This document shows, one piece after another, positions 14,930-43,132 of a stretch of 64,000 bases of DNA. Both the position numbers and the translations under genes were made by a program. The DNA is taken from the NCBI RefSeq assembly GCF_018977255.1, contig NW_024704742.1:38194001-38258000 (forward strand), in the 5' to 3' direction. The first letter of the stretch is position 1. The number at the start of each line of letters is the position of its first letter. This stretch comes from Callorhinchus milii (Eukaryota). Below the pieces are notes generated by a model. That model did no database searches. It worked only from the letters and a program-made list of their open reading frames with translations, and had not been told where the DNA came from.

Positions 14930-16781
14930 CTAAACAAAAATTAAAGCAAGTTAACACCAAATTGGACAATCTGCATGTTTCCCTCTGAAGGAGCTCTGAA
15001 TCTTCCTTATACTTACTGGGATACAGCTCCACAGGAGCCAATTTTTCTACAGGATTCTATCAGAAAGCTCGACATTCACATCAGCTATAATCCTGGTGGA
15101 CTATTTGATGAGGTAGCATCATAACAAAGCCACCCCACCACCCCCCCCCCTCAACAGACTACTACACAAATATCTCTTGCAAGAGTTTCAGAATAGAAAT
15201 TGGGCAGTCAGCCTGGTTGATTTGCCCCTCCCCTGCCCAAGGATGCTGAGGCCTTCAGTAGAACTGAAATATGGTATTTCTGCAAAAGAATCTCCAACTT
15301 TTCTAGTTTGCATGGAATCTCAGCTCTGATAGTTCAGAGATAGTCTTACTCTAGTCCCCTTTGTCAAGATTAACATATTAAGGCTACATTAACATTTTAA
15401 CACTCATATATCCCAATAGGTAGAATTCCAACCCAATTTCCTTCCTGTCTCTGGCCTTGGCTTTCCCACCCCTGACAATGACCTTCTCAAGTCCAGCCAC
15501 CTTGGCTTCTCTGGTGTGTTTGGCATTCTGCCAGCTGCCACAGTCAGTTGCCAGAACAGTCCTGTCTAATAATTTCTTGCATTCTTTCACTGAACCAGAG
15601 GGATCAGGAGTAGCATTGAATTCCAATGCTGCCAAGTGACAAGAGGAAGCCAGGCGTAAGGAGATTTTCATTGATGGTCTGGGATTTTCACAAAATGCCC
15701 TGAACTTTTCAAACGTAATTTGACTCACTTTTGACAACTGAAATAGATGAAAATGTTTTGGGCTGAAATGTATGCACACCTCATTATTCAGGTTTCAAAC
15801 TGTCCATTCTGTATAGGTTTACACACAGTTCCCCCACCCCCTTCCCCAACACACACACACACTCATTTTGAATTAACCACAACAGTTTTAACATGGATTG
15901 TACTACAGTTAAAATGGGAATCCATCAGAGACTGGTACAGAGTCAACTCTATAAACTTTTAAATGAATGAAATAACAGTAAGTGGAAACTAGATGGTGCA
16001 ATATCCACCCGTTGTATGAAGCCCAACTTCAGCTGCCCTGCGTGTAAGGTGTTGACACCGTATGGCAATAGGGAGATGAGTAAAAATCACAGATGGCATT
16101 TCTTCACTAGTCACCCTCCTGTGCGTTTGGGAGTGCAGAATACCATTTGGGACTTTAAGGACAAGAAGGAAAACCACCAGTTGATATCTGAACATAATTG
16201 TCTATTTTTTATTAATTAAAGCCTAGCATTTAAACATAACACAATCTGAGCTAAGATGTGTGCAATCGTTGCTGGATGAAGGTAAAGCACTTCCCAGGAA
16301 GGAAGGAAACGTACTTACAATGCGTCAACTTACATCAAATGACTTGCACGTATTCTAGCAGTTGGTTACAGAGCTGTATACAACTGAGACTCCTGTCTAA
16401 TTTTTTGACTAGGAAATTACAAGATCACAGGATTGGTTTGGATCAAGAAGGCCCTTCGGCCCATTTGATCTCGATCTTTCTAGAACACCCACCCTCCAGT
16501 CTCCCCATTACAGCATCAAACTATATACCAGTGTCCTGGTCTTAACCACCCAACCGTTCCAGTTATGAATTACTGTTTGGGTAAAGAAAAACTTCCTGAT
16601 ATCTGTCCTGAAATTGCCCTAAACCTACTGTGTCGGTGCATCCAATAATATTGTTCTGGGTTTACTTTTTCAATCCCATTTAAACTTTCTGAGCAGCCAA
16701 ATCTTTGCTAAAGTGCTTGCATGTAAATTACAGACAATTGTGCATTTTAAAACACATCATCTTGGGAAAAAAACTATTTAC

Positions 16782-16922
16782 AATGTGAAGGAAGTCCAAA
16801 GGAGTTGACGTGTGCAGATCCCAGTTCAATTTATCCAGTATAATTCTTTCCATTCTGAGAATATCAGCAGAAGAACAACCACAATTGCTGTTCTTCACCA
16901 TGTCCTTCAGAGATGGAATGTT
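16782..16922 (-). CDS. CCNI: Cyclin I coding exon 4 ([10 protein letters not shown]...[27 protein letters not shown]), 141 nt
   Basis: CTGCAG acceptor, GTAAAT donor; end of the cyclin box. Confidence 0.95.
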
Positions 16923-18170: not shown

Positions 18171-18584
18171 AAAAAAGTGTGAAGTGCTAAGCTATATATT
18201 TTTTAAGTCAGTCAGGTTCTGACACGTAGTCTCCAAACTAAAATACTGAGAGTTCTAGATATGTACAGTTTCTGTTTGTTTGTTATTGATGCTTCATGCG
18301 CTATTCCACAGAGTAGTAAGTGTAGTCCACAGCTCTATAGATACTACATTACCATCTCTGCTGTAAAGTCAGAAAACACAAAATAGAAAAGCCAAAATTA
18401 AACGCACACACATTGTGATTTTGAATGTAGAGTGGAATTAGCAGACAGAGTAACAAGTCACCCTCAGTTTGGGGAATTGCATGCAGCATGTTTGCTTTAT
18501 GAAGGGTACAGAAAGGTTAGAGAAGAGAAAGGAAATAAACTTTCGGCCACGATTTTTTGAAAAAAATATATTTTTTTTACCAAC

Positions 18585-18659
18585 CTCATCTTCTTCGTTG
18601 GTTTTAGCTGCTAGGAAGAAACCACTAACAGCTATGCAACGCAGATACTTTGGACGGGC
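18585..18659 (-). CDS. CCNI: Cyclin I coding exon 3 (ARPKYLRCIAVSGFFLAAKTNEEDE), 75 nt
   Basis: TTTCAG acceptor, GT donor; cyclin-box FLAAK..EEDE motif. Confidence 0.95.
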
Positions 18660-19375
18660 CTGAAAATATATCGTTTTTTTTAAAAATCATTTAAAAATTT
18701 TAAATGAAAAGATTAATAAGCACATAGTTAAAATCCTTCAACTCCAAGGAATCAAGTAGTCTTGGGCATTTAGGCTCAAGAGTAGCTCTAGAATCTTAAA
18801 ATCTTCCAATCTTAAAATCTTGTATATTTTCGCCCACAAAATATATAGTCAATTCACTTTACAGTATATTCTGTGAAGAGCTTTGAGTCTTGAAGACGTG
18901 ATAAAGCGCTATATCAAATGCAAGGATTAATATTATTATTAATGGCCCAATTCCATACTTAATGAATGAAACATTATATGGCAAATCCTGTTGATTTCCA
19001 GGTTTGGGTTTCACACACGTGTGCAGAACACACAACTCCAATGTGTTACGGTTAGGACGTGAAAAGTACTGTACAAATGTAATTTGTTGTTGTAGTAATT
19101 AATATGACATCATACATTCCAAGTATGTGTGGATCCTTTTTGGACAGTTTTTCCTCCAATTGGCACTCTCTAAACAATGTTGGCACTATCTAAACTGACA
19201 GAAACGACACGATTTCAGCATGAAATAAAGCTGAATAACCAATATATCACCCATGGTGTAAACATGTCTCAAATGACTTTATTGGAAAATTTTCAGCTAA
19301 GCACAAGGAAGTGAATGACAGAAAATAGCTCTTTCAAACACAGCTCATGTTAAATAAAACTTCAAACAATCTTAC

Positions 19376-19510
19376 CTTTACCAGAGCTAAAAACCGGTCC
19401 AAAATAGTGATGGCAAGGGAAAAGGTTTCTGGATAAAAGTAAAACTTGTTGTTGAGTTCAACCAGCCATCGAATCACCTCATCCCTGTGTGCTGGAGAAA
19501 CATCTATATC
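19376..19510 (-). CDS. CCNI: Cyclin I coding exon 2 (DIDVSPAHRDEVIRWL...YPETFSLAITILDRFLALVK), 135 nt
   Basis: CTGTAG acceptor, GTAAG donor; cyclin-box start RDEVI.WL and ETF.LA...LDRFL. Confidence 0.95.
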
Positions 19511-24316: not shown

Positions 24317-24430
24317 CTGATCGGTTAGATTTTTTGGCACATACACCTTCCACATCTGTGCTTCCCTAGAGACTGTCTTCTCCAAAAGAAGTGACAGCCT
24401 CTGGCTCTCCAAGGGTCCTGAATACTTCAT
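24317..24430 (-). CDS. CCNI: Cyclin I first coding exon (MKYSGPLESQRLSLLLEKTVSREAQMWKVYVPKNLTDQ); exon spans 24317-24473 including 43 nt of leader
   Basis: GCCATGA start, GTAAG donor, TTACAG acceptor ending at 24474. Matches the vertebrate cyclin I N-terminus. The six exons join in frame to 383 aa. Confidence 0.95.
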
Positions 24431-24623
24431 GGCACCCCTTGGATCCACCAACCTCCCAAATGGATACAGCTACCTGTAATTGAAAGCAAAAAGGAATAAC
24501 GTGCTTTGGTTAGTAGGATATGTTTAACCTTAGTCAGATTAAAGACATTTCCTTATAATTTTCTTTTGGTTAGCCATGACTGACACGCTGAAACCCAACA
24601 CGCTTGAGTGTATCCAAACCAGA

Positions 24624-25075
24624 CAACAACAACAACAAGATTCCATTTATAAAGCGCCTTTCACGTCAGGAGGACGTCCCAAGGCGCTGCACAGTTGGGT
24701 CATGACCCGAGCAGGGGGGAAATGGTCAGGGTGAGGGGAGGGAAGGGAGTGAGCGAGGAGGGGGGAAATGGTCAGGGTGAGGGGAGGGAAGGGAGGGAGC
24801 AAGGAGGGGGGAAATGGTCAGGGGGAGGGAAGGGAGGGAGCGAGGAGGGGGTAGAGAGTCGAGAGGGGAGCTGAAGGCACGGTCAAAGAGAAAGGTCTTG
24901 AGACCGGCCTTGAAGGAGGAAAGGGAGGAGGCGGCGAAGGCACTGGGGGATGGAGTTCCAGAGCCTGGGGGCTGAGAGGCTGAAGGCCCGACCACCGATG
25001 GTAGGGCGGTTGGGGCGGGGGACGTGGAGCAGACCAGAGCCAGAGGAACGGAGGGTACGGGCAGGTAGGTAGGGG
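24624..25075 (-). mobile_element. L2-clade LINE 3' fragment
   Basis: FKAGLKTFLFDRAF motif and the family tail with (TTG)n. Confidence 0.85.
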
Positions 25076-26509
25076 TTAGGGTTAGGAAGTGTTACACATA
25101 TGCAATTTCCCTGTGTAGATGGTATACATATGTGTTAAGCTATTCTTTGGTCATTCTCAGAACAATTCTATTCTCAACTAATGCAAGGAGGTTGGACAGC
25201 ACTAATTTAATCCAATAAACGAGTGTAGTGAACATATGATTTACGAGTTAATACAATTTCTAAAGATAACTCTTACCCGAGTTTTCACTGTACAACAAGG
25301 TGATCATTTGCAGCTATACAAGTCCTGATTTTGCATTTTTTTCTGGCAAAAATTGAAGGGCTAACTTGTTGCCAAGTTTAGAACATAAGAAAGAATGAAA
25401 CAAGACAGCCATCCAGCGTTTCAGTTCACTGTTGATTCTTGTAGGAATTCCCTTTCCTCTGCAGACAAATTCCTCTTCTTCCCCTCCCCCCCAATTTGCC
25501 AGTATAGGAACACTCATCCTCCTTGGGAGTTTTTGTTCATCATATAACCCTGAATGCTCTCCTCAAACAGATAATTACTCCGTACTGTTGAAGGTTATAA
25601 ACACAGAATCAGTTGCTTTCATTAGGATTCCATTAATCCATTATTCTTTCTTTTGGTCTCATTTGAGACTTATTTTGTTAACCCACATTTTCTAGTTCTG
25701 AGTTCAGTCTAAGTCATAAAGCTTGATTAAATTTACATAATGTATCAGTTTCATCATTTAAAGACACGGATTATAGACACTCTCCGCCAGTTTATTTTCT
25801 CTGTAATAAAAGTCCAGCAGTGTGAGCCTCCACTCATAACTTAATGTCATTGTCATTGCTCTCTCCTCTGAACTCTCTTCAATAATCAATGTTCTTATGA
25901 AGGTATGATCTATAAAAACTCATAATGTTGTAAATGGGATTTTACTAATGATTTATCTTGACATAGTGAAAACTTGAGATGCAGCACAGATATGATTAGC
26001 TTTGAAAAGTGTGTCACATGAACTGAAAACCTTCAACGAATCATCAGTAATCATACAAGTTCCTCCAGCTGCCCCCACCTTTACTAATGTTCACGCGTCA
26101 TTTTTACTGGTACCCAATTCGATTAAATTTACCTTACATCAGAATGTACCTGCTATTTCATAGCTAATTTAATGAATTGGTTCAGATCTGCTCAGGTGCT
26201 CTTTATCCTGCTATTCAAGTCTTGTACAATACTTACAAAGCTTGATCTCATCAGCAAGGTTTACAATACAGTGCACTCCTTCATTTCATGTGAAAACATT
26301 AGGAAAATTTAGTGTTCACTGTCTTCCCCAATTCCATCCAAAGTGCTTTTTCCATAAGCAAATTTTCAACACTAACTAACTAACTAACTAACTAACTAAC
26401 CAGCCATTCATTATTACAGGTAATTTTCATGCTGTGGGTCCACTCAAAGTAAAACATAAGCTGCAAAACATAGAATCATGGAATTATACAGCACAAAACG
26501 AGGCCTGAC

Positions 26510-26780
26510 AATGAGTGGGGCTGGGCAAGGCGGGGGACGTGAAGCTGAGCGGAGGGAGCGGACAGGTTGGTGGGGGTTAGGAGGTTACGGATGTAGGGAG
26601 TAGCAAGGCCGTAGAAGGCTTTGAAGGTGAGGACCAGGACCTTGAACAGTATCCTCTGTGTGATGGGAAGCTAGTGGAGTCGGGCGAGGATGGGGGTGAT
26701 AGGGTCACGGCACCTGGTGCGGTAGAGGACATGGGTTACAGAGTTCTGGATGACCTGCAGCCTTTGCAAGTAGGGAGTTT
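26510..26780 (-). mobile_element. L2-clade LINE fragment
   Basis: Reverse complement of the 'ctgcaggtcatccagaactctg...ttcaaggtcctggtcctcaccttcaaagcc' segment shared with the other copies. Confidence 0.75.
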
Positions 26781-28691
26781 GCTCACTCTAGTCTGTATGT
26801 AATCAATTTGTGGATCTGGACATTAGAAATGTGTTCATGTGTACCACCATTTCTGATGCTACGAGTTATCACTTTATTGTGCTGACAATCTCAAAGTTGT
26901 AGTAAATGAGATTAACAGGGCACAGGTTCCATCAAAGCAAATGTTTATTAGGGATTGTCCACAGGGAGCTGCTGTTAGTGACCTATTTGAATTATTAAAA
27001 TTTGTGGGTTTTTGGAAAATTCACTGACGTCAGTAAATAGTGCAACATCACAGTATAGCAACAATGATTAATTGAAGTTGCTGCTTTCACTTCAATAAAT
27101 TGCCCAAAATGACACCAAAATACCGTTAAAATAAGGTACCAGAAAAAGTATTCGGTGCAGCAAGTACGTTGAAAGTTTTCTTTTTAAAAATTTGGATACG
27201 ATAACAGCAGAAACAAAGTTTTGAAGATCAAGTGCCCAGTTTATTATTCAAATCTTAATCTTCCTGAATCTGATGCTCTTTAGGGATATAAATGACCTGA
27301 TTGACCAAACTCACCTACAATCCATGCCTGCCAAGACAAAACTGAAAGCTATGCTGCTTACAACCATGTAAAGTGACATCAGCTTCACTCTCAAATTTCG
27401 GACAAAAACATCACTGCTCTTCTCACATGCCTGTTCTCACCTTTTCATAGGCTGAAGTCATCCTGAAGAGCTTTCTCCCCCTTAAACCCAGCACAAGAAT
27501 CAGATTATTCACCCCCCACCCCCACCCTCCCGCATTATAAATACATAGAGGTAATAATCCCTTCAAAAATAAATTTAGTTCCTCAATCCACGACTGTTTG
27601 GGACACTGCTGTGCGCAACTGGCCCGCAAAGTAGTCACTTCACTTTACTGTATAATCTGTGAAGTGCTTTGAGACTTTTCAAATATTAAAACCAGTTAGT
27701 ATCAGAACTCTGGAACTATAGTTCAATCCAGTCAACTAGAGGATAAACTTCTGGGGCCAAATGTCACAGCAACTTCGCAGCACAGTCCTGCTCCAAAACT
27801 GACTTGTCAAAACATCGACCTCAATTGCTGTTTGTTGCACACTATGCTTGACCTCACTCAGTTAGTTATCCATCCGACAAATGTGATAAAAATGACAATA
27901 TATCATTGCTCCTGATAGGAAACAGTATAGTAGAAACACGCATTAGTATATTAAAAAAATAAGTAAACATCGGGCTGCCAATTGATGAAGGCAAATTAGA
28001 TCTCGCAATAGAAACCATTAGTGAATTAATGGTCCAGCACTTTGGGACGTCCTCCCGACGTGAAAGGCGCTATACAAATGTAATTTTGTTGTTATTGTTG
28101 TTGAATTAGTTTGTAGTTAAATTTAAGGCCAGTTGAACAATTACGGGGTGGGGGGGGGGGAGGGAAATGAAGACAGGGGCTGAGAGGACCTATATTAAGT
28201 GACAATGGTCTCAGAGCACTATACCAGCAAGCTTAAAAAGAATAGCATAGAAACAAGGCAAGTGAAGAGGTACAAAGCTTAGGTCTTTTGGACTGCTTGA
28301 AAGAAAGGAAGATTCAAAGAGTTTCATAATCTTGATACCAGGAAGAGAGGGGCACAGAAACGAGTTAAGAGTAGGAGATATGTAATTGATTTTTGAAAAC
28401 ACTATTGAGGAGGCGTGGATAGAAGAAGAGAATTTCAAGAAAATAGAGATCCGTGAAAAGTTGCAAGAAAAAGTTTGCAGGCCAGAGGAGAAGAAGGTAT
28501 AATCTATCAGACAAGAAGCCTTTTTGGGATCCTGTACAGGAATGGAAGGGATGCAAAAAGATTCCCTAAGTATGGGAGCAATAATCAAATCTTGAATAAA
28601 GTGGAGCTTTATAGAGTTCTAAAGAGTTGAGGAGAAAAGTTTGACACGATAGGTGCACAACGGAAAAAATAACAACAGAATCAAGTCAACC

Positions 28692-29078
28692 CTCTGTGGC
28701 AGTCTAGTTCAGTTCCTGAGCAGGCAGGTCCACAGTATTCCAGGGCACTGCTGATGACAGCGCAGCCATCCTGGCTCATCGGCAGGACTTAGAAAGGCAG
28801 ACCAGCCACTGGGGGCAGGGAAACCTCCCACTCATCTTCAGTTAACCCTGCAAGAAAAACCCCTCATAGGAGGGTGGTCCTAGCTGACCAAGCAAAGCAG
28901 CAGGAAAGCATGCCAGACTGTCCTATCAATGGTTTTAGTTGGTTTGACTCCAGCAGTACCCCAACCTATACTCTCAGGTACCCAAGCCTTGGCTCTTGCC
29001 AACCTGCGCCTAATACTTTCCGGAATTAGGTGAGCAGGATGCATCCCTCCACGGAGAGAATGTGCATTCCATTCCAAT
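28692..29078 (-). repeat. Unclassified interspersed repeat (second copy at 63364-63762, opposite strand)
   Basis: Collinear similarity over ~400 bp with 63364-63762. Confidence 0.75.
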
Positions 29079-29364
29079 AAATAATTGTATTTTTCATGTG
29101 TAGTAGGGATGCATGTAACTCTTTTTGGTTTGGATACTCTTAAGTACAGTGAAGGGTTTCTCAGGACTTCCTCTCGACGTGAAAGGCGCTATATAAATGT
29201 GTTGTTGTTGTTTCCACGTGTGTCAGACACCCGGCTGACCCCCCAAAAAACAATATTGGAGCTTTACAAGTCTTGAAGTGTGGATTGTTCAATACATTGT
29301 TATCTAATATCATTTCAATAATAGCTGCATTTTATAAAAATACAGTAAATACAATACAAAATTT

Positions 29365-29845
29365 AGACATTTGTAAAGCACCTTTCATATCGGGAGGACG
29401 CCCCAAGGCACTGAACAGTCAGGGATTAGGGATTAAAACCCTGAGTGGGGAGGGTTGGGATCGGGGGGGGTGGCGGGCAAAGAGGATAGCTGAAGGAACA
29501 GTCTAAGAGGAGGGTCTTGAGGCACGCCTTGAAGGAGGTAAGGGAGGGAGCGAGGCGAAGAGCACGTGGGATGGAATTTCAGAGGGTAGGGGCAGAGAGG
29601 CCAGTGGAATCGGGCAAGGGTGGGGAGGTGATAGGAAGGATCGTGGAGTCTGTGGGAGAGGGCACAAGCTGCAGAGTTCTGGATGATCTGCAGCTTGTGG
29701 AAGGAAGAGTTGGGGAGGCCGACAAGCAGAGAGTTGGCGTAGTTGAGCCTAAATGTAACAAGCGCACGGATGAGGGTCTCAGCAGCCTGAGCTGGGCAAT
29801 GTTGCGGAGGTGGGAGAAGGCAGAACAGGTTATGGCACGGGTCAT
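29365..29845 (-). mobile_element. L2-clade LINE 3' fragment
   Basis: AETLIRALVTFRLNYANSLLVGLP...KLQIIQNSAA motif. Confidence 0.85.
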
Positions 29846-30366
29846 TGCACACAGCAAATGCTAGACTGAAATAAATATGCCAAAAATATAAATCTAGAGT
29901 AAATCTGGCAGTGAAGCACATCAAATTCTGCATTTAGATTGCAGCGCGGCTACAGTATAAACCAGGTGGTTGTCATTAGCTGTAACATGGCTCTACATTC
30001 CTAAATGCGCTCAAGATAGCAAGATAACTGGGCCCTCCTGTTGCATCCAAATTATTTGTTTTTTGGGGCGGACGGGGGTTGAGCTGCAAGCCTACAGACT
30101 GCCAATGCAGCGTGCAGCTCTTCCCAGAGATTAGTCCACAAGCCAAGACCTCTATTGGTTTCCAAATTCCAACGCATGCTTTGCATTCTGCCAACAGGGC
30201 AGCGTTCCAGCACCAGTGGCGTTTAGGGTACTGATTGCCAGGTCTGAGGTAACTAACGTACAAAGTAACAGCAGCATCGTACAGTAGAAAAGGTCACTCT
30301 TGCTGCTCAAGGGGACGTTTCAGCTGTGAGCAAATTTTATGTTTTCCTACTTCTAAATGTTTCACT

Positions 30367-31133
30367 GGATAGAATCATACTGCACAAAAAGAGGCCATTC
30401 GGCCCATCGAGTTTGTGCCGGCTCTTTGAATAGAGCAATTAATGTCAGCCCCACTCCCCAGCCCTTTCCCCATAACCCTGCAAACCCGTCCTCCTCAAAT
30501 ACCCACCGACACACCCACCGAAACAGTTTTTCTTTTTCTAACCTATCAAATCCCTCATGATTTTGATGACCTCTATTAGGTCTCCTCGTAACCTTCTCTG
30601 CTCCAATGAGAATAATCCCAGCCTCTCCAGCCTTTCCTCATAATCAAGGTCCCTCATTCCTGGGACCATCCTCGTAAATCTCCTCTGCACCCTTTCCAAT
30701 GCCTTAACATCCTTCCTATAGTGTGGTGCCCAGAACTGGGCGCAGTATTCCAAGTGAGGCCTAACCAGTGTTTTATATAGGTTAATCATAACCTCCTGAC
30801 TCTTGTACTCTATGCCCCTATTTATAAAGCCTAGTATCCCTTCAAGGATTCATTTACCTGAACCGCCAGGTCTCTCTGTTCTTTCACCCCCCCTTAAGAT
30901 TGTATTACCAGCCTGTATTGCCTCCCCTCATTCTTTCTACCAAAATGCATTACTTTGCATTTCTCCACATTGAAACTTATCTGCCATGCGTCTGCCCATT
31001 TTACCATTCTGTCTATGTCTTCCTGCAGTTGTCTCCTATCCTTCTCACTGTTTACCACACTACCTAACTTTGTGTCGTCCGCAAACTTGGAAACGGTGCT
31101 TACTATACCCAAGTCCAGATCATTTATGTATAA
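30367..31133 (-). mobile_element. CR1-type LINE ORF2 (RT C-terminal) fragment with 3' end
   Basis: SKFADDTKLG...LQEDID...W...WQ..FNVEKCKVMHFG and LYKTLVRPHLEYCAQFWAPHYRKDV.ALERVQRRFTRM motifs, diagnostic of CR1. Confidence 0.92.
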
Positions 31134-32179
31134 CTTTAAGATCAGAATTTAGTAACATTATTCATGAATACATGATGCATAAATTATGAAGGAATGCTAA
31201 GAATTTTCACATACATTGCTACACAGCCCAAACAATCTGTGTTGCTTCTGTGATCAAAGCTTCTCTGCTACGTTATCTATTTTTCACAATATTCTTCTCT
31301 GTGCACAAACCTCCCCATAGTCCCCACTACTTGCCCATATTTCCAAGTAACGTGGAAAAAATTGCCTCAGTAATGTTACAAGCTAGAACTTGAGCAAATA
31401 CAAAAGAAAATTTCCTATCATGTAGTCATTATATTTTATTCAAAAATTCACAAATTTCAGCACTGAAATGTAAATAAATCCAATCCCAAAGGTCAAATAG
31501 TTTGAAAATCCTCCACAGATAGGGGAGGAATTGAAGACATGACCATTATCCCAGAGTGGATGAAAGTTATGATTCTTGTGATTCTTTGAGAGATTTGAAA
31601 GTTTCAGACACCAAAGGTCTGCAATCTGAAGAAAGAATTGGCAACAAATGTAGCACTGAATAATTCACAAATAGTTGATATGGTTGGGAGATGACTGAAG
31701 ATCATTAATGTGGAGAAGAAGCAAATTGGCAGAGTTTCAGGAAACTCCTGGAACAAGATATTAAACCTTCATATGCAAGAATAAATACATTTTTCAAAAG
31801 TTTATTTTGAAATTTTCAAATGTGTAACAAATCACCAAAGATATGGAGTTTCCAATCCAACTCTGCATATGTGGAAGGCTCAGTTGGAGGAAAGAAGCTA
31901 CCAAGAACAGGTTCAAACATGATTGTGAGTCGCATGGCCAGACCATTCATTATATACGAGGCATGAGAACAGATACACTGCATCTTGTGGCCATCTTACC
32001 AAGCCAAGAGTCCTAACACCTACTTTTTAATCAATAAGTTATCACAAGTTTATTACAGGTTTAGATTGAAGTGGCACAGCACAACTAACAGTAGCAATAG
32101 TAACACATTACAATATTCGAGTTTATTATTTTGTGAACTGTACCGATTCCTATATTCTAACAAGAGATGGATTGTAAGA

Positions 32180-32553
32180 TTGGCACTGCCGGCTGACTCG
32201 GTTGGTAGGACTCTCACCTCGGGTGAGAAGGTTGTGGGTCCAAACCCCACCGTTGGACTTGGAACTCGTTATAGTCGAAACTGACACTCCAATGGAGTGC
32301 TGAGAGTGTACTGCAGTGTCAGAAGTCTTTTGGGTGAGATGTTAATCCATCTACTTGTTTATCAACGATCCCACGGCATTATTCAAAAAGACAAGGGAGT
32401 TTCTACCATGTCCTTGCCAACAACACCCAAATAAAAGAAAGTCATTCACTTCATGGCTATTTGTGGGATAACTGGCTGTCACGCTTGCCCACAAAACACA
32501 GCTGCTACATCCTCCTGAGGTGAAAGACTCTATTACAATGCAAAGATTATTAT
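32180..32553 (+). mobile_element. Old tRNA-derived Deu-domain SINE (SacSINE1/AmnSINE-like), near full length
   Basis: tRNA-like head, then 'ctgacactcca.tg.agtgctgag.g.gt.ctgca.tgtc...gatcccacggca.tatt..aaaga.aagggagt' resembling the Deu domain as recalled, then a LINE-like tail. Confidence 0.7.
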
Positions 32554-32689
32554 TTTGATAAAACTACCTGCCAAATTCTGTTGACTCAATCAGTTGGGCA
32601 AGCAAGCTTTTTTGGTACCCAAAGCCCACTTAAGACTTGCCTCTTTGACTGCAGTTTCGGTCATCTGCCCCCATTCCCACTCCACATAT

Positions 32690-33065
32690 TGTTTCACAAA
32701 CAAAACATTCAAATCCCTCCATGGCCTCACCCCATCCTACCTCTGCGACTCCCTGCACCCTACTGACCCACCTGCTCCCTTTGCTCAATGAACATTGCTT
32801 TGTGTCCCCCACCCCATCTGGCCCACATCGACGGCCGTGCTTTCCATCATTTTGCTTTACTCTCTGGAACTCCATCCAAGAGCCCCTCCAATTCGCCACT
32901 TCACTCCCTACTTTCAAAACCCATCTTAAGCCTCTTTGACCACACTTTCGGTCATCTGCCCCCATTTCCAATCCACATGCACCCTCTTCAGCTCCCAATC
33001 TGCTGTGTAAAGTGTTTTGAGAATCCCCCCAATGTGAAAGCACTATTGTAATATGAACTATTGCA
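32690..33065 (+). mobile_element. L2-clade LINE 3' fragment
   Basis: FKSLHGLTPSYLCD, GRAF, TLWNSI..., FKTHLK motifs. Confidence 0.75.
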
Positions 33066-33510
33066 ACAACAACTTGCATTTATATAGTGCCCCTCACGCA
33101 GGGTAGCGACCCAGAGCACTTAAAGATGATGCAGTAGAATTTTGTACTTAAGTGACAAAACAAACATTACACAACGGTTACTATAGTCCACCCGTAGGAA
33201 ATCCTACGCAACACTATGATTGATCGGAAATGATTAAATGATTTGCATTGGAGGATTTCATCAGATTAAATCCCACAAGCATTTTCGAAGAAGATTAACA
33301 TGAATTACTGGCCTGTTCGGGCTACAGCACGAGAGAACCCGAAAGCCATGAACTATGCCTTAGACAACCTTAACTGAGGAATTACTTATGGTATCACAAT
33401 TGCCGTTAATGGTAATGGGAGAGGGGCAGGGAGGGGGAAGATGTAAACTTCTTCTAACTATTACAAGAAAGAGAGGGTTATAAGAATGGGCAGAATTAGA
33501 ATTGGCTGTT

Positions 33511-33845
33511 ATAATAATAATAATAATAATAATAATAATCCTTGCATTTGATATAGCGCTTTTCACGTCGGGAGGACGTCCCAAAGCGCTTCACAGAATA
33601 GACTGTAAAGTGAATTGACTGTATATTTGTGGGCGAACGCGGCAGCCAATTGCGCACAGCAATGTCCCACAAACAGTCGTAGATTGAAAATGACCAATTT
33701 ATTATTGTTTTTTGTTTTGGAGGGATTATTATTAGGCGTGTGGAGTAAGGAAACTTGCCCAAGGTTTCGCCCTGACCTGCCTGGAATTGAACTCAGATCT
33801 CTCGCTTGCAAAGCGAGAGCTCTAACCACTGAGCTACAGGACTCC
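33511..33845 (-). mobile_element. tRNA-derived SINE, young copy
   Basis: Close reverse-complement match to 17553-17858 with a long (TTA)n tail. Confidence 0.9.
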
Positions 33846-34164
33846 ACGATGCACTTCATTATGCACTTCATTCTAACACATGAGTCAAAACAGTGTGGAC
33901 CCTTCCACGAGCAAACAAGTACATTTGAGAGGTAAAAAAGAATGTGAATCTATGATTTTGCACAATAAACATTTTGCAAGAGGGAAGAAACAAGAAGAAA
34001 GGGCAGTAGGATTCAATAATATTTTTACAGAAACAAACATTTCAAGGCTCATTTCACAATGCTCTGCTCAAACTTTACTCAGTTTCTGACATTTCCAACA
34101 CCCTTGATGCATTATAGCATGTTACACTCTGAACTGCAACATCCCACACAGGGAAGTCATCAGG

Positions 34165-34330
34165 ACTGTGAGTTCATGGTCAAGGCTAACACTACAATTG
34201 CAGAGGGGCTCTCCTTCAGATGAAACATTAAAAACTAAGGTCCAGACTGCCTGTTCAGGTGGTCTAGTTATGATCTCACGGCACAATTCGAAAGAGAAGC
34301 GAGTTTCTCCCAGCGTCCTGACCAACAATC
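34165..34330 (+). mobile_element. Deu-domain SINE fragment
   Basis: 'ccttcagatgaaacattaaaaactaaggtcc...ctgcctgttcaggtgg...gatctcacggcacaattcgaaagagaag...gtcctgaccaaca'; similar fragments lie near 44785-45000, 45060-45490, 54085-54200 and 61190-61410. Confidence 0.65.
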
Positions 34331-34357
34331 AGATAACAGTCAACACTTTTGTCACAG

Positions 34358-36705
34358 TCTCCGGCCTGTGTGTGTGTGTGTGTGTGCGCGTCTCCGGCCT
34401 CTGTGTGTGTATGTGTGTGTGTTTTCGGCCTGTGTGTATGTGTGTGTCGCTGGTCTGTGTCTGTGTGTGTCTGGCCTGCGTGTGTGCATGTTTCTCTGGC
34501 CTGTGTTTGTGTGTCTCCGGCCTGTGTGTGTGTGTGTGTGTGTATGTGTGTCTGGCCTGTGTGTGTATGTGTGTGTCTGACCTGTGTGTGTATCTGGCCT
34601 GTGTGTGTGTGTGTGTGTAACTAGCCTGTCTGTGAATGTGTCTAGCCTGTGAGTGTGTGTCTGGCCTGTGTATGCGTTCCTGGCCTGTGTGTGTGTGTGG
34701 GGGGGGGGGGGGGCTGTGTGTGTGGGGGGGCGCTGTGTGTGTGGGGGGGCGCTGTGTGTGGGGGGGCGCTGTGCGTGTAGAGGCGGGGGGCTGTGCGTGT
34801 AGAAGCAGGGGGCTGTGCGTGTAGAAGCAGGGGGCTGTGCGTGTAGAGGCGGGGGGCTGTGTGTGGGGGGGCTGTGTGTGTGTATGGGGGGCTGTGGGGC
34901 TGTGTGTGTGTACGGGGGGCTGTGTGTGGGGGGGCTGTGTGTGGGGGGCTGTGTGTGTGTATGGGGGGCTGTGGGGCTGTGTGTGTGTACGGGGGTCTGT
35001 GTGTGGGGGGGCTGTGTGTGTGGGGGGGCTGTGGGCTGTGTGTGTGGCGGGGGCTGTGGGGCTGTGTGTGTGTATGGGGGGCTGTGTGTGGTGGGGGCTG
35101 TGGGGCTGTGTGTGTATGTGGGGCTGTGTGTGTATGGGAGGCTGTGGGGCTGCGTGTGTGGGGGGGGATGTGGGGCTGTGTGTGTGTGTGAGGGCTGTGT
35201 GTGGGGGGGCTGTGGGCTGTGTGTGTGGGGGGGGCTGTGGGGCTGTGTGTGTATGGGGCCTGTGGGGCTGCGTGTATGTGGGGCTGTGTGTGTGTGTGAG
35301 GGCTGTGTGTGGGGGGGGCTGTGGGGCTGTGTGTGTGGGGGGCTGTGGGCTGTGTGTGTGGCGGGGGCTGTGGGGCTGTGTGTGTGTATGGGGGGCTGTG
35401 TGTGGTGGGGGCTGTGGGGCTGTGTGTGTGTATGTGGGGCTGTGTGTGTGGGGGGCTGTGTGTGGGCTGTGTGTATGTGGGGCTGTGTGTGTGTGAGGGC
35501 TGTGTGTGGGGGGGGCTGTTAGGCTGTGTGTGTGGGGGGGCTGTGTGGGGGGGGGCTGTGTGTGTGTGGGGGGCTGTGTGTGTGGGGGGGGCTGTGGGGC
35601 TGTGTGTGTGTATGGGGGCTGTGTGTGTATGGGGGGCTGTGGGGCTGTGTGTATGTGGGGCTGTGTGTGTGTGTGAGGGCTGTGTGTGGGGGGGCTGTTA
35701 GGCTGTGTGTGTGTGGGGGGGGCTGTGTGTGTTGGGGGGGCTGTGTGTGTGTATGTGGGGCTGTGTGTGTATGGGGGGCTGTGGGGCTGTGTGTGTATGG
35801 GAGGCTGTGGGGCTGTGTGTGTGGGGGGGCTGTGTGGAGGGGGGCTGTGGGGCTGTGTGTGGGGTGGCTGTGTGTGGGGGGCTGTGTGTGGGGTGTTTGT
35901 GTGTGTGGGGTGTGTGTGTGTGGGGGGGGCTGTGTGTGGGGGGGCTGTGTGTGGGGGGGGCTGTATGTGGGGGGGGGTGTGGGGTGTGTGTGTGGGGGGG
36001 CTGTGTGGGGGGGCTGTGTGTGGGGTGTTTGTGTGTGGGGGGGGGCTGTGTGTGGGGGGCTGTGTGTGGGGGGGCTGTATGTGGGGGGGTGTGTGGGTGT
36101 GTGTGTGGGGGGGCTGTGTGGGGGGCTGTGTGTGGGTGGTTTGTGTGTGTGGGGTGTGTGTGTGGGGGGGGGCTGTGTGGGGGGCTGTGTGTGGGGGGTG
36201 TGTGTGGGGGGGTGTGTGTGTGTGTGTGGGGGGGGGGGCGCTGTGTGGGTGGGGGGGGGGTTGGGGGGGTTGGGCGTGTATGAGGGCTGTGTGTGTGTGT
36301 GTATGAGGGTTGGGGGGTTGGGGCTGTGTATGAGGGCTGTGTGTGTGTGTGTATGAGGGGTTGGGGGGTTGGGGCTGTGTATGAGGGCTGTGTGTGTGTG
36401 TGTATGAGGGTTGGGGGGTTGGGGCTGTGTATGAGGGCTGTGTGTGTGTGTGTATGAGGGTTGGGGGGGTTGGGGCTGTGTATGAGGTGTGTGTGTGTGT
36501 GTATGAGGGGTTGGGGGGTTGGGGCTGTGTATGAGGCTGTGTGTGTGTGTGTATGAGGGGTTGGGGGGGTTGGGGCTGTGTATGAGGGCTGTGTGTATGT
36601 ATCTGTGTGTGTGTGGGGGGGGGTTGGGGGTGGGGCTGTGTGTGTGTGTGTATGAGGGGCTGTGTATGAGGGCTGTGTGTATGTGTGTGTATGAGGGGTT
36701 GGGGA
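34358..36705. repeat. Compound GT/G-rich tandem array: (TCTGGCC(TG)n), then (G4-8 CT(GT)n), then a ~50-bp unit with GTATGAGGGGTTGGGGGGTTGGGGCT
   Basis: Directly visible low-complexity periodicity; ~2.3 kb at the 5' end of CCNI intron 1. Confidence 0.97.
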
Positions 36706-36718
36706 CTGTATCTCTCAC

Positions 36719-37300
36719 CTTCCCCGCGAAGCTGCGATGTTCACAGTCGTTCTCGCGCATCAGGTCCATGAACTCCGGGTCTGACCGCGAGCGCTCTCAC
36801 TCCTCCATCCCGGGGGTCCGCGCCTCTCCGAGTGTGTGTTCGGGGGCCGCGGGCCGGGGGGCCGGGGGCCTGGCGGGCCGGGGGGGCGGGGGGGGCCTGG
36901 CGGGGCCTGGCGGGGCCGGGGGGGCCTGGCGGGCTGGCGGGGGGGGGGGAGGCCGGGGGGGGGGAGAGCACAGTGCGGGGCCCCGGACTGGCGGAGCCGC
37001 TTCCCGGGAGAGGCCGACCGTCCACACCGCCGCCTCACCCCCACTCCCCGGCTCGCATCCGCCGCCCACACCCCGCCCCCGGCACGGCAGGCGGACACAC
37101 CGGCCACACCCGCCCCCCGGGACTCTGCCCGGGCCGACACCCGAGCTCGGGAAGGCCCGGCCGGCGCCGCGCCAGCCTCGGCCGAAGGCCCGCACTCATT
37201 TCTGTCGGCGGAAGCGCACGGACCCGGGAGCCGACAGCTGCGGTGAGGCGGTCCACCTCCCACAATCCATCGCGCGGTTGGCAACAAACCCCAGAAACAG
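36719..37300 (-). promoter_or_regulatory. CCNI: CpG island / probable first (leader) exon and promoter of CCNI
   Basis: Very GC/CpG-rich unique sequence between two tandem arrays. Strong minus-strand donor AAG|GTGAGA at 36719/36718. The ATG exon has an acceptor and so needs an upstream exon. TSS not located. Confidence 0.75.
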
Positions 37301-37324
37301 ACTCACAGCGAAACACAGTGCACA

Positions 37325-40300
37325 CACTGTGTGTACTATACACACCACAGCACTGTGTGTACCACACACACCACAGCACTGTGTGTACCATACACACCAC
37401 AGCACTGTGTGTACTATACACACCACAGGCACTGTGTGTACTATACACACCACAGGCACTGTGTGTACTATACACACCACAGGCACTGTGTGTACCACAC
37501 ACACCACAGCACTGTGTGTACCATACACACCACAGCACTGTGTGTACTATACACACCACAGCACTGTGTGTACTATACACACCACAGGCACTGTGTGTAC
37601 TGTACACACCAAGGCACTGTGTGTACTATACACACCACAGCACTGTGTGTACTATACACACCACAGGCACTGTGTGTACTATACACACCACAGCACTGTG
37701 TGTACTATACACACCACAGGCACTGTGTGTACTATACACACCACAGCACTGTGTGTACTATATACACCACAGCACTGTGTGTACTATACACACCACAGCA
37801 CTGTGTGTACTATACACACCACAGCACTGTGTGTACCATACACACCACAGCACTGTGTGTACTATACACACCACAGCACTGTGTGTACTATACACACCAC
37901 AGGCACTGTGTGTACTATACACACCACAGGCACTGTGTGTACTATACACACCAGCACTGTGTGTACTATACAACACACCGGCACTGTGTGTACTTACACA
38001 CCACACAACTGTGTGTACTATACACACCACAGGCACTGTGTGTACTATACACACCACAGGCACTGTGTGTACTATATACACCACAGGCACTGTGTGTACT
38101 ATACACACCACAGGCACTGTGTGTACTATACACACCACAGGCACTGTGTGTACCACACACACCACAGCACTGTGTGTACTATACACACCACAGCACTGTG
38201 TGTACTATACACACCACAGGCACTGTGTGTACTATACACACCACAGCACTGTGTGTACTATACACACCACAGCACTGTGTGTACCACACACACCACAGCA
38301 CTGTGTGTACTATACACACCACAGCACTGTGTGTACTATACACACCACAGGCACTGTGTGTACTATACACACCACAGCACTGTGTGTACCACACACACCA
38401 CAGCACTGTGTGTACTATACACACCACAGCACTGTGTGTACTATACACACCACAGGCACTGTGTGTACTATACACACCACAGCACTGTGTGTACTATACA
38501 CACCACAGCACTGTGTGTACTATACACACCACAGGCACTGTGTGTACTATACACACCACAGCACTGTGTGTACTATACACACCACAGCACTGTGTGTACT
38601 ATACACACCACAGGCACTGTGTGTACTATACACACCACAGGCACTGTGTGTACTATACACACCTCAGGCACTGTGTGTACCACACAACCACAGCACTGTG
38701 TGTACTATACACACCACAGCACTGTGTGTACTATACACACCACAGGCACTGTGTGTACTATACACACCACAGGCACTGTGTGTACCACACACACCACAGC
38801 ACTGTGTGTACTATACACACCACAGCACTGTGTGTACTATACACACCACAGCACTGTGTGTACTATACACACCACAGCACTGTGTGTACTATACACACCA
38901 CAGCACTGTGTGTACTATACACACCACAGGCACTGTGTGTACTATACACACCACAGGCACTGTGTGTACCACACACACCACAGGCACTGTGTGTACTATA
39001 CACACCACAGCACTGTGTGTACTATACACACCACAGGCACTGTGTGTACTATACACACCACAGGCACTGTGTGTACCACACACACCACAGCACTGTGTGT
39101 ACTATACACACCACAGGCACTGTGTGTACTATACACACCACAGCACTGTGTGTACCACACACACCACAGCACTGTGTGTACTATACACACCACAGCACTG
39201 TGTGTACCACACACACCACAGCACTGTGTGTACCACACACACCACAGCACTGTGTGTACTATACACACCACAGCACTGTGTGTACTATACACACCACAGC
39301 ACTGTGTGTACTATACACACACAGGCACTGTGTGTACCACACACACCACAGCACTGTGTGTACTATACACACCACAGGCACTGTGTGTACTATACACACC
39401 ACAGCACTGTGTGTACTATACACACCACAGCACTGTGTGTACTATACACACCACAGCACTGTGTGTACTATACACACCACAGGCACTGTGTGTACCACAC
39501 ACACCACAGCACTGTGTGTACTATACACACCACAGGCACTGTGTGTACTATACACCCACAGGCACTGTGTGTACCACACACACCACAGCACTGTGTGTAC
39601 TATACACACCACAGGCACTGTGTGTACTATACACACCACAGCACTGTGTGTACTATACACACCACAGGCACTGTGTGTACCACCACACCACAGGCACTGT
39701 GTGTACTATACACACCACAGGCACTGTGTGTACATACACACCACAGCACTGTGTGTACTATACACACCACAGGCACTGTGTGTACCACACACACCACAGC
39801 ACTGTGTGTACTATACACACCACAGGCACTGTGTGTACCACACACACCACAACACTGTGTGTACTATACACACCACAGGCACTGTGTGTACCATACACAC
39901 CACAGCACTGTGTGTACTATACACACCACAGGCACTGTGTGTACCATACACACCACAGCACTGTGTGTACATAACACACCACAGCACTGTGTGTACTATA
40001 CACACCACAGCACTGTGTGTACTATATACACCACAGGCACTGTGTGTACTATATACACCACAGCACTGTGTGTACTATAACACCACAGGCACTGTGTGTA
40101 CCATACACACCACAGCACTGTGTGTACTATACACACCACAGGCACTGTGTGTACATACACCACACAGCACTGTGTGTACTATACACACCACAGGCACTGT
40201 GTGTACCACACACACCACAGCACTGTGTGTACTATACACACCACAGGCACTGTGTGTACCATACACACCACAGCACTGTGTGTACTATACACACCACAGG

Positions 40301-43107: not shown

Positions 43108-43132
43108 NNNNNNNNNNNNNNNNNNNNNNNNN
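43108..43132. other. Assembly gap (25 N)
   Basis: Run of N characters. Confidence 1.

Follow-up and report, generated by a model that had tools for sequence, protein, structure and literature searches.

Introduction

ATF4 and ATF5 are the models of delayed reinitiation: after a short upstream open reading frame (uORF), ribosomes reinitiate at a second one that overlaps the coding sequence (CDS), and upon eIF2-alpha phosphorylation this second uORF is skipped and the protein is induced. In a leader of the ATF4 type, the spacer between the two uORFs must let most rescanning subunits reload before the second one in unstressed cells. The leader of the cyclin I gene (CCNI) of Callorhinchus milii (hereafter the shark) was preliminarily described, from its letters, as having this design. 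Here we analyze that leader within a stretch of 64,000 nt, which we call the window (NCBI RefSeq assembly GCF_018977255.1, contig NW_024704742.1, positions 38,194,001 to 38,258,000 of the forward strand); CCNI lies on its minus strand, and all shark positions below are those of the window. We focus on the second uORF, an overlapping uORF (uoORF) that we connect with an ORF catalogued in human CCNI.

The closest described counterpart is c4riboseqorf52, a human Ribo-seq ORF in CCNI listed in the supplementary table of Sandmann et al. 2023 (PMC10032668) as a uoORF of two exon segments (72+108 nt), whose peptide is given as MTPRHHCEAYSSAGE(E)nK/VATASWVAGRSKGYHEVSRAFGKPEIVFPVGKGNH (here and below, a slash within a peptide marks the exon-exon junction). 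The table credits it with 1 mass spectrometry (MS) study and with PhyloCSF scores of -33.4 (primates) and -354.9 (mammals), and labels it "primatomorpha - young, de_novo_ORF" (PMC10032668). As that source describes it, the age label is based on an amino-acid score across non-primate mammals together with ORF-structure checks within primates and colugos (PMC10032668).

CCNI encodes an atypical cyclin that recurs near the top in screens of translational control (eIF4G2, eIF4A, PCBP2, eIF2 stress and neuronal depolarization). The human mRNA has 5 upstream AUGs (uAUGs; uATGs in DNA), and its leader is reported to make a reporter eIF4G2-dependent (Smirnova et al. 2022, PMC8789081). Both this reporter and the endogenous mRNA are described as showing above-average sensitivity to eIF2 inactivation (PMC8789081; PMC4383229), CCNI being one of 7 mRNAs singled out for their particular sensitivity to arsenite (PMC4383229). 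A CCNI-Fluc reporter is reported to be very poorly translated compared with other mRNAs and to be repressed by PCBP2 (Smirnova et al. 2019, PMC6573783); because the reverse primer given there ends at the codon pair forming the uoORF stop, this reporter kept the uoORF intact. CCNI is also listed among the top 7 hippuristanol-responsive mRNAs (PMC7515738), and in mouse neural cultures treated with KCl its ribosome occupancy is reported to fall at a constant mRNA level (PMC5269599). The five uAUGs of the 560-nt human leader have kept the responsible cis-element from being dissected, and the authors of one study give their number as the reason for avoiding CCNI (PMC8789081). In the literature on CCNI with uORFs or eIF4G2, titles and abstract openings held no mention of uoORF conservation; supplementary tables were outside this search. 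The preliminary description had suggested that cyclin I may be under translational or stress control: translational control is indeed published for human and mouse CCNI, while induction by stress does not fit the hypersensitivity of human CCNI to eIF2 inactivation.

The overlapping uORF is part of the mature shark CCNI mRNA

A protein search with the last exon as query returned cyclin-I of Callorhinchus milii at 100% identity, a match by which the gene is the shark CCNI, as first proposed. Its first, non-coding exon has a minimum extent of 36719..36868 and is followed by a GT donor at 36718-36717. The leader contains two uORFs in one reading frame. uORF1 (36797..36808, ATGGAGGAGTGA) reads ATG GAG GAG TGA, that is M-E-E-stop, and its start lies in the context cccGGGATGG, with G at -3 and G at +4. 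After a spacer of 27 nt (36770..36796) follows the exon-1 part of the uoORF (36719..36769, MDLMRENDCEHRSFAGK), which reaches the donor in phase 0 just before GTGAGA. Its first ATG (36769) has T at -3 and G at +4, and a second in-frame ATG at 36760 has C at both positions.

Intron 1 (24474..36718; 12.2 kb, GT...AG) separates this exon from exon 2 (24317..24473), whose 157 nt follow the acceptor ...ttacag and comprise a 43-nt leader and the first 38 codons of cyclin I, the encoded protein matching C. milii cyclin-I. Past the junction the uoORF frame reads VAVSIWEVGGSKGC and crosses the main ATG out of frame. Its exon-2 part (24366..24473, VAVSIWEVGGSKGCHEVFRTLGEPEAVTSFGEDSL) takes 108 nt including the TAG at 24368-24366, so that the uoORF has 52 codons in total (51+108 nt) and overlaps the cyclin I CDS by 65 nt. 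The main start (24428..24430, gccATGa) lies, in the spliced mRNA, 94 nt past the first ATG of the uoORF (uATG2) and 121 nt past the uORF1 stop. On re-reading the sequence, the preliminary coordinates of uORF1, uATG2, the phase-0 donor, the acceptor, the 52-aa uoORF and the 65-nt overlap were all correct.

These features were then looked for in transcripts. A search of sequencing runs with 36700-36900 gave 12 runs, and part of this stretch occurs in 11 of them. No run is registered as RNA; ten small ones were presumed to be RNA, and the RNA origin of any of them follows only from the spliced contigs. Reads of four runs were assembled against 36660-37320, the exon-1 island without the repeats outside it. 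Results showed that contig X1 (2610 nt) covers 36717-36868 and contig X4 (386 nt, from a study other than that of X1) covers 36717-36830; in both, the matching breaks at the donor and continues with the same 30 letters, whose single match in the window is 24442-24471. This segment is exon 2 right after the GT that is common to the intron start and the exon-2 start. Since the 30-letter extensions are the start of exon 2, the 36719/24473 junction is real, and no leader exon lies between exons 1 and 2; the evidence consists of contig letters past the donor matched to exon 2, not of one alignment over both exons. Spliced contigs of two runs, each from a different study, thus contain the junction predicted in the preliminary description, exon 1 is non-coding, and the extra leader exon that had been considered as a refuting case was not seen in either contig.

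uORF1 lies inside contigs X1, X2 and X4, and both uATG1 (the start of uORF1) and uATG2 lie within the spliced contigs X1 and X4, in which intron 1 is removed. The spliced contigs thus show that the uoORF is present in the mature shark CCNI mRNA, within a leader of at least 155-193 nt that has 3 uATGs. Contig X2 (179 nt) is unspliced and runs through 36661-36829, from exon 1 into intron 1, representing either pre-mRNA, intron retention or DNA in the run. A further run, X11, resembles low-depth DNA.

Relatives of the overlapping uORF from cartilaginous fish to mammals

We compared the shark uoORF with c4riboseqorf52, taking the human start from the published peptide table and not from the 5' untranslated region (UTR) sequence. 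Both begin in the non-coding exon 1, are spliced in the same phase to exon 2, run over the main ATG out of frame and stop at the same position; the human exon-2 segment (77066298-77066405) and the shark one (24473-24366) each have 108 nt, and 16 of 35 exon-2 residues are identical when aligned by eye. The exon-1 parts differ more, the human one having 72 nt, a poly-E run and a MTPRHH start, whereas the shark one has 51 nt and starts with MDLM. On these correspondences, the shark uoORF is the orthologue of human c4riboseqorf52.

Database peptides allowed the frame to be followed in other vertebrates. A whale record annotated as "low quality" cyclin-I (P0132) reads the uoORF frame through exon 2 and matches the shark exon-2 part with 11/17 identities (E=4e-5, BLASTP). 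Its first 60 residues, used as query among short proteins, gave 27 hits, many of which are peptides of 56-67 aa that derive from transcript contigs and contain the mammalian uoORF in full. The shark exon-2 part itself, searched against 5.8 billion proteins, gave one hit, P0170 (E=1e-4), which reads ...MDRMIARSNCESHSFAGE/VAVSSGVVGVSKGCHEVFRTLGEPEIVFPSGNGNL. A seven-row profile found 12 proteins at E<=0.001 among 1.84 billion; P0172, P0173 and P0175 scored E-values from 1e-11 to 1e-16. Among the forms that are not of mammal type, P0172 reads ...MDRGIQADGQERSFAGE/VAVSIWEAG..., P0173 reads MELMLDSPTCTYYSFAGE/VAVSIW... and P0179, a cluster-mate of P0175, reads MDRMISKCNSEAYSIAGE/VAVSGW.... A degenerate pattern of the exon-2 part gave 0 matches in a metagenome scan.

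The exon-1 frame is also exposed by predicted isoforms that skip exon 2, namely in coelacanth (P0014, MDRMITESDWETHHRFAGE/DTDISP), turtle (P0020 and P0140, MGRPGQPRPTGNSCAGEQ/DVAISP) and many mammals (MTPRHHCEAYSSAGE(E)nK/NVSP). Outside mammals the distance from ATG to donor is 15-19 codons. The exon-1 peptides of P0170, P0172, P0173 and coelacanth P0014 resemble that of the shark beyond shuffled controls (0-1 of 2000 shuffles as good), so that this part is significant in 4 of 13 comparisons.

The motif shared from shark to mammals is ...C-E-x-x-S-[FS]-A-G-[EK]/V-A-[VT]-S-x-W-x-x-G-x-S-K-G. In a set of 41 database peptides (P0142-P0183 without P0169, which is the window's own translation), it is present in 31, whose exon-2 part measures 35 residues in 23 peptides, 36 in 2 and 15 in 5, and is cut off in 1. 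The 14 leader codons without cyclin overlap are identical to shark at 7-12 positions in all 10 peptides compared, and the 21 codons that overlap the cyclin frame at 9-18 positions. Taken together, these comparisons argue that the uoORF is common to cartilaginous fish, coelacanth and mammals and is ancient, and that the "young, de novo" label does not hold. The conservation of the uoORF frame and stop that the preliminary description proposed to check in orthologues was thus recovered, and the same cannot be said of uORF1, as reported below.

One likeness noted by eye, between the shark uATG2 (MDLMR) and a human 5-codon uORF (MELIR-stop), was dropped, as P0179 (MDRMISKCNSEAYSIAGE) joins an MD.M start to the mammalian ...CEAYSSAGE frame. 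We also observed a mammal-type peptide of 94 aa, P0171, in which the last residues of cyclin I exon 3 (...LDRFLATVK) run directly into the beginning of exon 2, translated in the frame of the uoORF (VATASWVAGRSKGYHEV...), the segment order expected of a back-spliced (circular) exon 2-3 RNA.

Chance expectation, folding and uORF1 in relatives

We asked how often such a layout arises in 5000 dinucleotide-preserving shuffles of the leader. Shuffled leaders had on average 3.1-3.2 ATGs, where the real one has 3. Of these shuffles, 64-66% contained an overlapping uORF out of frame, and 11-16% a uORF of at most 5 codons upstream of such a one. The two-uORF layout in a single sequence is therefore indistinguishable from chance, and what sets the uoORF beyond chance is its conservation across species. 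Folding of the leader RNA was unremarkable as well (-62.6 kcal/mol, z = -0.73).

As uORF1 is in frame with the uoORF, the in-frame residues upstream of the uoORF in relatives are informative on it. In P0172 the frame is open, the 13 codons that precede the MDRG start lack Met, and there is no MEE-like mini-ORF; in P0170 the letters MVFYFIL immediately precede MDRM, again with no MEE-like mini-ORF in frame. The two human CCNI rows of the catalogue (PMC10032668) list a 24-codon uORF besides the uoORF and no counterpart of uORF1, and the human 5' UTR, seen over 400 of its 560-561 letters, adds a 5-codon uORF. Judged from P0172, P0170 and the two human catalogue rows, uORF1 is not conserved.

A probable dampening role of the overlapping uORF

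In the reading that we consider likely, the uoORF of the shark leader is repressive and constitutive, and ribosomes get past it by leaky scanning or reinitiation; it probably dampens cyclin I synthesis and does not make it stress-inducible. Starting at a conserved double ATG (M-D-x-M) in exon 1, the uoORF spans the junction and ends 65 nt inside the CDS, so that ribosomes starting at 36769 or 36760 would terminate beyond the main AUG without producing cyclin I; the uoORF would thereby cap cyclin I synthesis constitutively. Ribosomes could reach the main AUG by leaky scanning past the uATGs in weak context (T or C at -3), a process reported to need eIF4G2 in human CCNI (PMC8789081). In this species a second route may exist, in which 40S subunits would resume scanning after the three-codon uORF1; as 27-36 nt would be too short to recharge, most of them would go by the uoORF starts without initiating there and reinitiate at the main AUG, 121 nt after the uORF1 stop. 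With less eIF2 ternary complex, main-AUG starts would decrease and less cyclin I would be made, without induction, which agrees in direction with the human CCNI data.

Several observations weigh against this interpretation. In the shark, we infer both the translation of the uoORF and its repressive effect, and no human reporter with mutated CCNI uAUGs was found in the literature. The role given to uORF1 rests on general spacing rules for reinitiation, and uORF1 may be neutral, since it is not conserved. The transcription start is not fixed either, as more ATGs lie upstream (37058, 37199 and 37270) and the contigs end 5' at 36829/36830 and 36868. In five mammal-type peptides (P0153-P0156 and P0158; ...EEKKK), the uoORF stops after 15 exon-2 residues (...GRSKGIP or IS), about at the main ATG; therefore the 65-nt overlap is not obligatory and its length varies among mammals. 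Finally, similarity of the exon-1 peptide to shark was marginal for five mammal rows (20-66 of 2000 shuffles) and absent for turtle, P0175, P0179 and P0147 in the same shuffling comparison.

Other explanations of the conserved frame concern its product or its splicing. The product of the uoORF could matter, either as a 52-aa micropeptide or as a nascent peptide stalling the ribosome in cis, as in conserved-peptide uORFs. The junction motif common to shark through mammals speaks for this, as do the 14 non-overlapping codons, which are kept (7-12/14) about as well as the cyclin-constrained part (9-18/21), and the one MS study listed for the human ORF. Nevertheless, the N-terminal half varies freely, with a variable poly-E run inserted in mammals, the five truncated mammal-type forms are shortened, either to 41-45 aa or to 15 residues in their exon-2 part, and peptide comparisons alone do not separate conservation at the peptide level from that at the RNA level. 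The micropeptide idea in particular is weak: several lineages do have a similar exon-1 peptide, yet the tabulated PhyloCSF scores of the human ORF are negative in primates (-33.4) and strongly so across mammals (-354.9). We hold a role of the product to be unlikely. It is also quite improbable, in our view, that conservation of the exon-1 ATG is due chiefly to its use as the start codon in an exon-2-skipped mRNA encoding a cyclin I with a different N-terminus, the uoORF being a side effect or a second use of it. Phase 0 is found both at the end of exon 1 and at the beginning of exon 3 (19376..19510; DIDVSPAHRDE...), so that joining them would set the exon-1 ATG in the cyclin I frame; such isoforms are predicted in coelacanth (P0014), turtle (P0020, P0140) and many mammals, and 10 of the 15 listed members of a 116-member cluster begin with MTPR.... 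However, these isoforms are automatic predictions, none of the skipped type is listed for C. milii, whose isoforms X1, X2 and X3 all start with MKYSG, both spliced contigs join exon 1 to exon 2, and the phase fit is a 1-in-2 coincidence, since geometry provides it for one of the two frames other than the main one.

The remaining two explanations deny the uoORF any function or give it a different one. If the leader were neutral, its uATGs would be tolerated noise and the similarity among species would stem from slow evolution, from splice-site and Kozak constraints and from the cyclin frame. A layout not unusual for a leader of such composition, RNA folding that is not exceptional (z = -0.73) and an overlap of 21 codons constrained by the cyclin frame anyway speak for this explanation, but each sampled lineage, cartilaginous fish and mammals included, retains the ATG together with the open frame and the phase of the junction, the human ORF is in the catalogue as a translated one, and CCNI is repeatedly reported among the most translationally regulated mRNAs; we judge neutrality very unlikely. 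Least probable of all appears the ATF4/ATF5-type reading, in which ribosomes reinitiate at the uoORF after uORF1 and cyclin I is stress-induced when eIF2-alpha phosphorylation lets them skip it. A strong-context 3-codon uORF and an out-of-frame overlapping uORF are indeed both in the mRNA, but their spacer is short (27 nt, or 36 to the second ATG, vs 87 nt in human ATF4), the main AUG lies just 94 nt past uATG2, uORF1 was not seen in the upstream sequence of P0172 and P0170 or in the two human catalogue rows, and the human CCNI mRNA and reporter are described as hypersensitive, not resistant, to eIF2 inactivation.

A more far-reaching version of the repressive uoORF is conceivable, though we regard it as doubtful: a uoORF of about 450 million years, fixed in jawed vertebrates, whose double start (M-D-x-M) would have two uses, opening a repressive frame with a selected junction peptide (SFAG[EK]/VAVS.W..G.SKG) and starting an alternative cyclin I N-terminus upon exon 2 skipping. 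If this were true, splicing would switch one ATG between "repressor" and "coding start".

What is new here is modest, that is the deep conservation of a human uoORF catalogued as young; no new mechanism is proposed, and stress induction is unlikely. The published age is thereby corrected for one catalogued human Ribo-seq ORF, which advises caution on amino-acid scores computed on mammals only. Moreover, a uoORF kept from cartilaginous fish to human points to a likely core element of CCNI control, and the shark leader offers a short natural version (155-193 nt, three uATGs) suited to testing it.

The CCNI locus in the window

The rest of the cyclin I exons are located downstream on the same (minus) strand. 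The predicted C. milii cyclin-I isoforms X1-X3 (labels unrelated to those of the contigs above) share the start MKYSGPLES; isoform X2 (358 aa) is without the exon-4 segment (window 18570-18660) and isoform X3 (336 aa) without the exon-5 segment (window 16770-16900), both segments being inside the cyclin box. A transcript-derived cyclin I, P0003, is 85% identical to the window's last exon and starts MYPMGATKYSGPLES. It has Thr at the usual initiator Met and two in-frame Mets upstream in the exon-2 leader, and 7 codons of the window leader are absent from it; being a single contig, it may represent a relative with a shifted start codon or an assembly error.

CCNI exon 1 is located in a unique GC-rich island of ~600 bp flanked by long tandem arrays. 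Directly upstream of this promoter island, an array with a 26-bp unit (79-bp higher-order unit, 93-94% matches) occupies 37321-38500 and beyond. On the other side, the 5' end of intron 1 (34350-36660) consists of ~2.4 kb of degenerate G/TG-rich tandem arrays with a GC skew up to 0.6, including one at 36257-36659 with a period of 50/101 bp and 90% matches. A run of 25 N (assembly gap) is found at 43108-43132.

Comparison with known leaders

Among described systems, the eIF4G2 (DAP5)-dependent uORF mRNAs (Maf1, Stard7, APAF1 and CCNI; PMC8789081) include CCNI itself as a validated target, and in them scanning ribosomes are reported to have to pass uORFs. That dependence is known for the human CCNI leader, which with 560 nt and 5 uAUGs is longer than the shark one (at least 155-193 nt, 3 uATGs), and the study as reported did not resolve which CCNI uAUG matters (PMC8789081). 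A second group consists of the C-rich leaders repressed by PCBP2, reported for eIF4G2 and CCNI (PMC6573783). The shark counterpart would be a C-rich tract with short repeats (36841..36990) directly upstream of uATG1, which may be promoter or the 5' part of longer leaders. In its composition it recalls the C/U-rich human CCNI leader described as bound and repressed by PCBP2, and only its first ~28 nt, to 36868, are covered by an RNA-type contig.

With ATF4 and ATF5 the shark leader shares the order of elements, a 5'-proximal uORF of three codons and, after it, a uORF that overlaps the CDS out of frame, both found in the shark CCNI mRNA. The spacer between them measures 27 nt in shark CCNI, or 36 nt if counted to the second ATG, against 87 nt in the human ATF4 leader; by the usual length rule the shark spacer is too short for reloading of the ATF4 type. 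The preliminary description had itself remarked that the spacing is shorter than in ATF4 and that the mechanism may differ, a reservation that the two lengths bear out. ATF4 is moreover resistant to, or induced by, eIF2-alpha phosphorylation, while human CCNI is reported to be hypersensitive (PMC8789081; PMC4383229). The delayed-reinitiation design first attributed to this leader is thus not supported, considering its short spacer, a uORF1 that is not conserved and a stress response that in human CCNI goes in the opposite direction. The shark leader should not be filed with ATF4-like leaders; it belongs with the uoORF of vertebrate CCNI.

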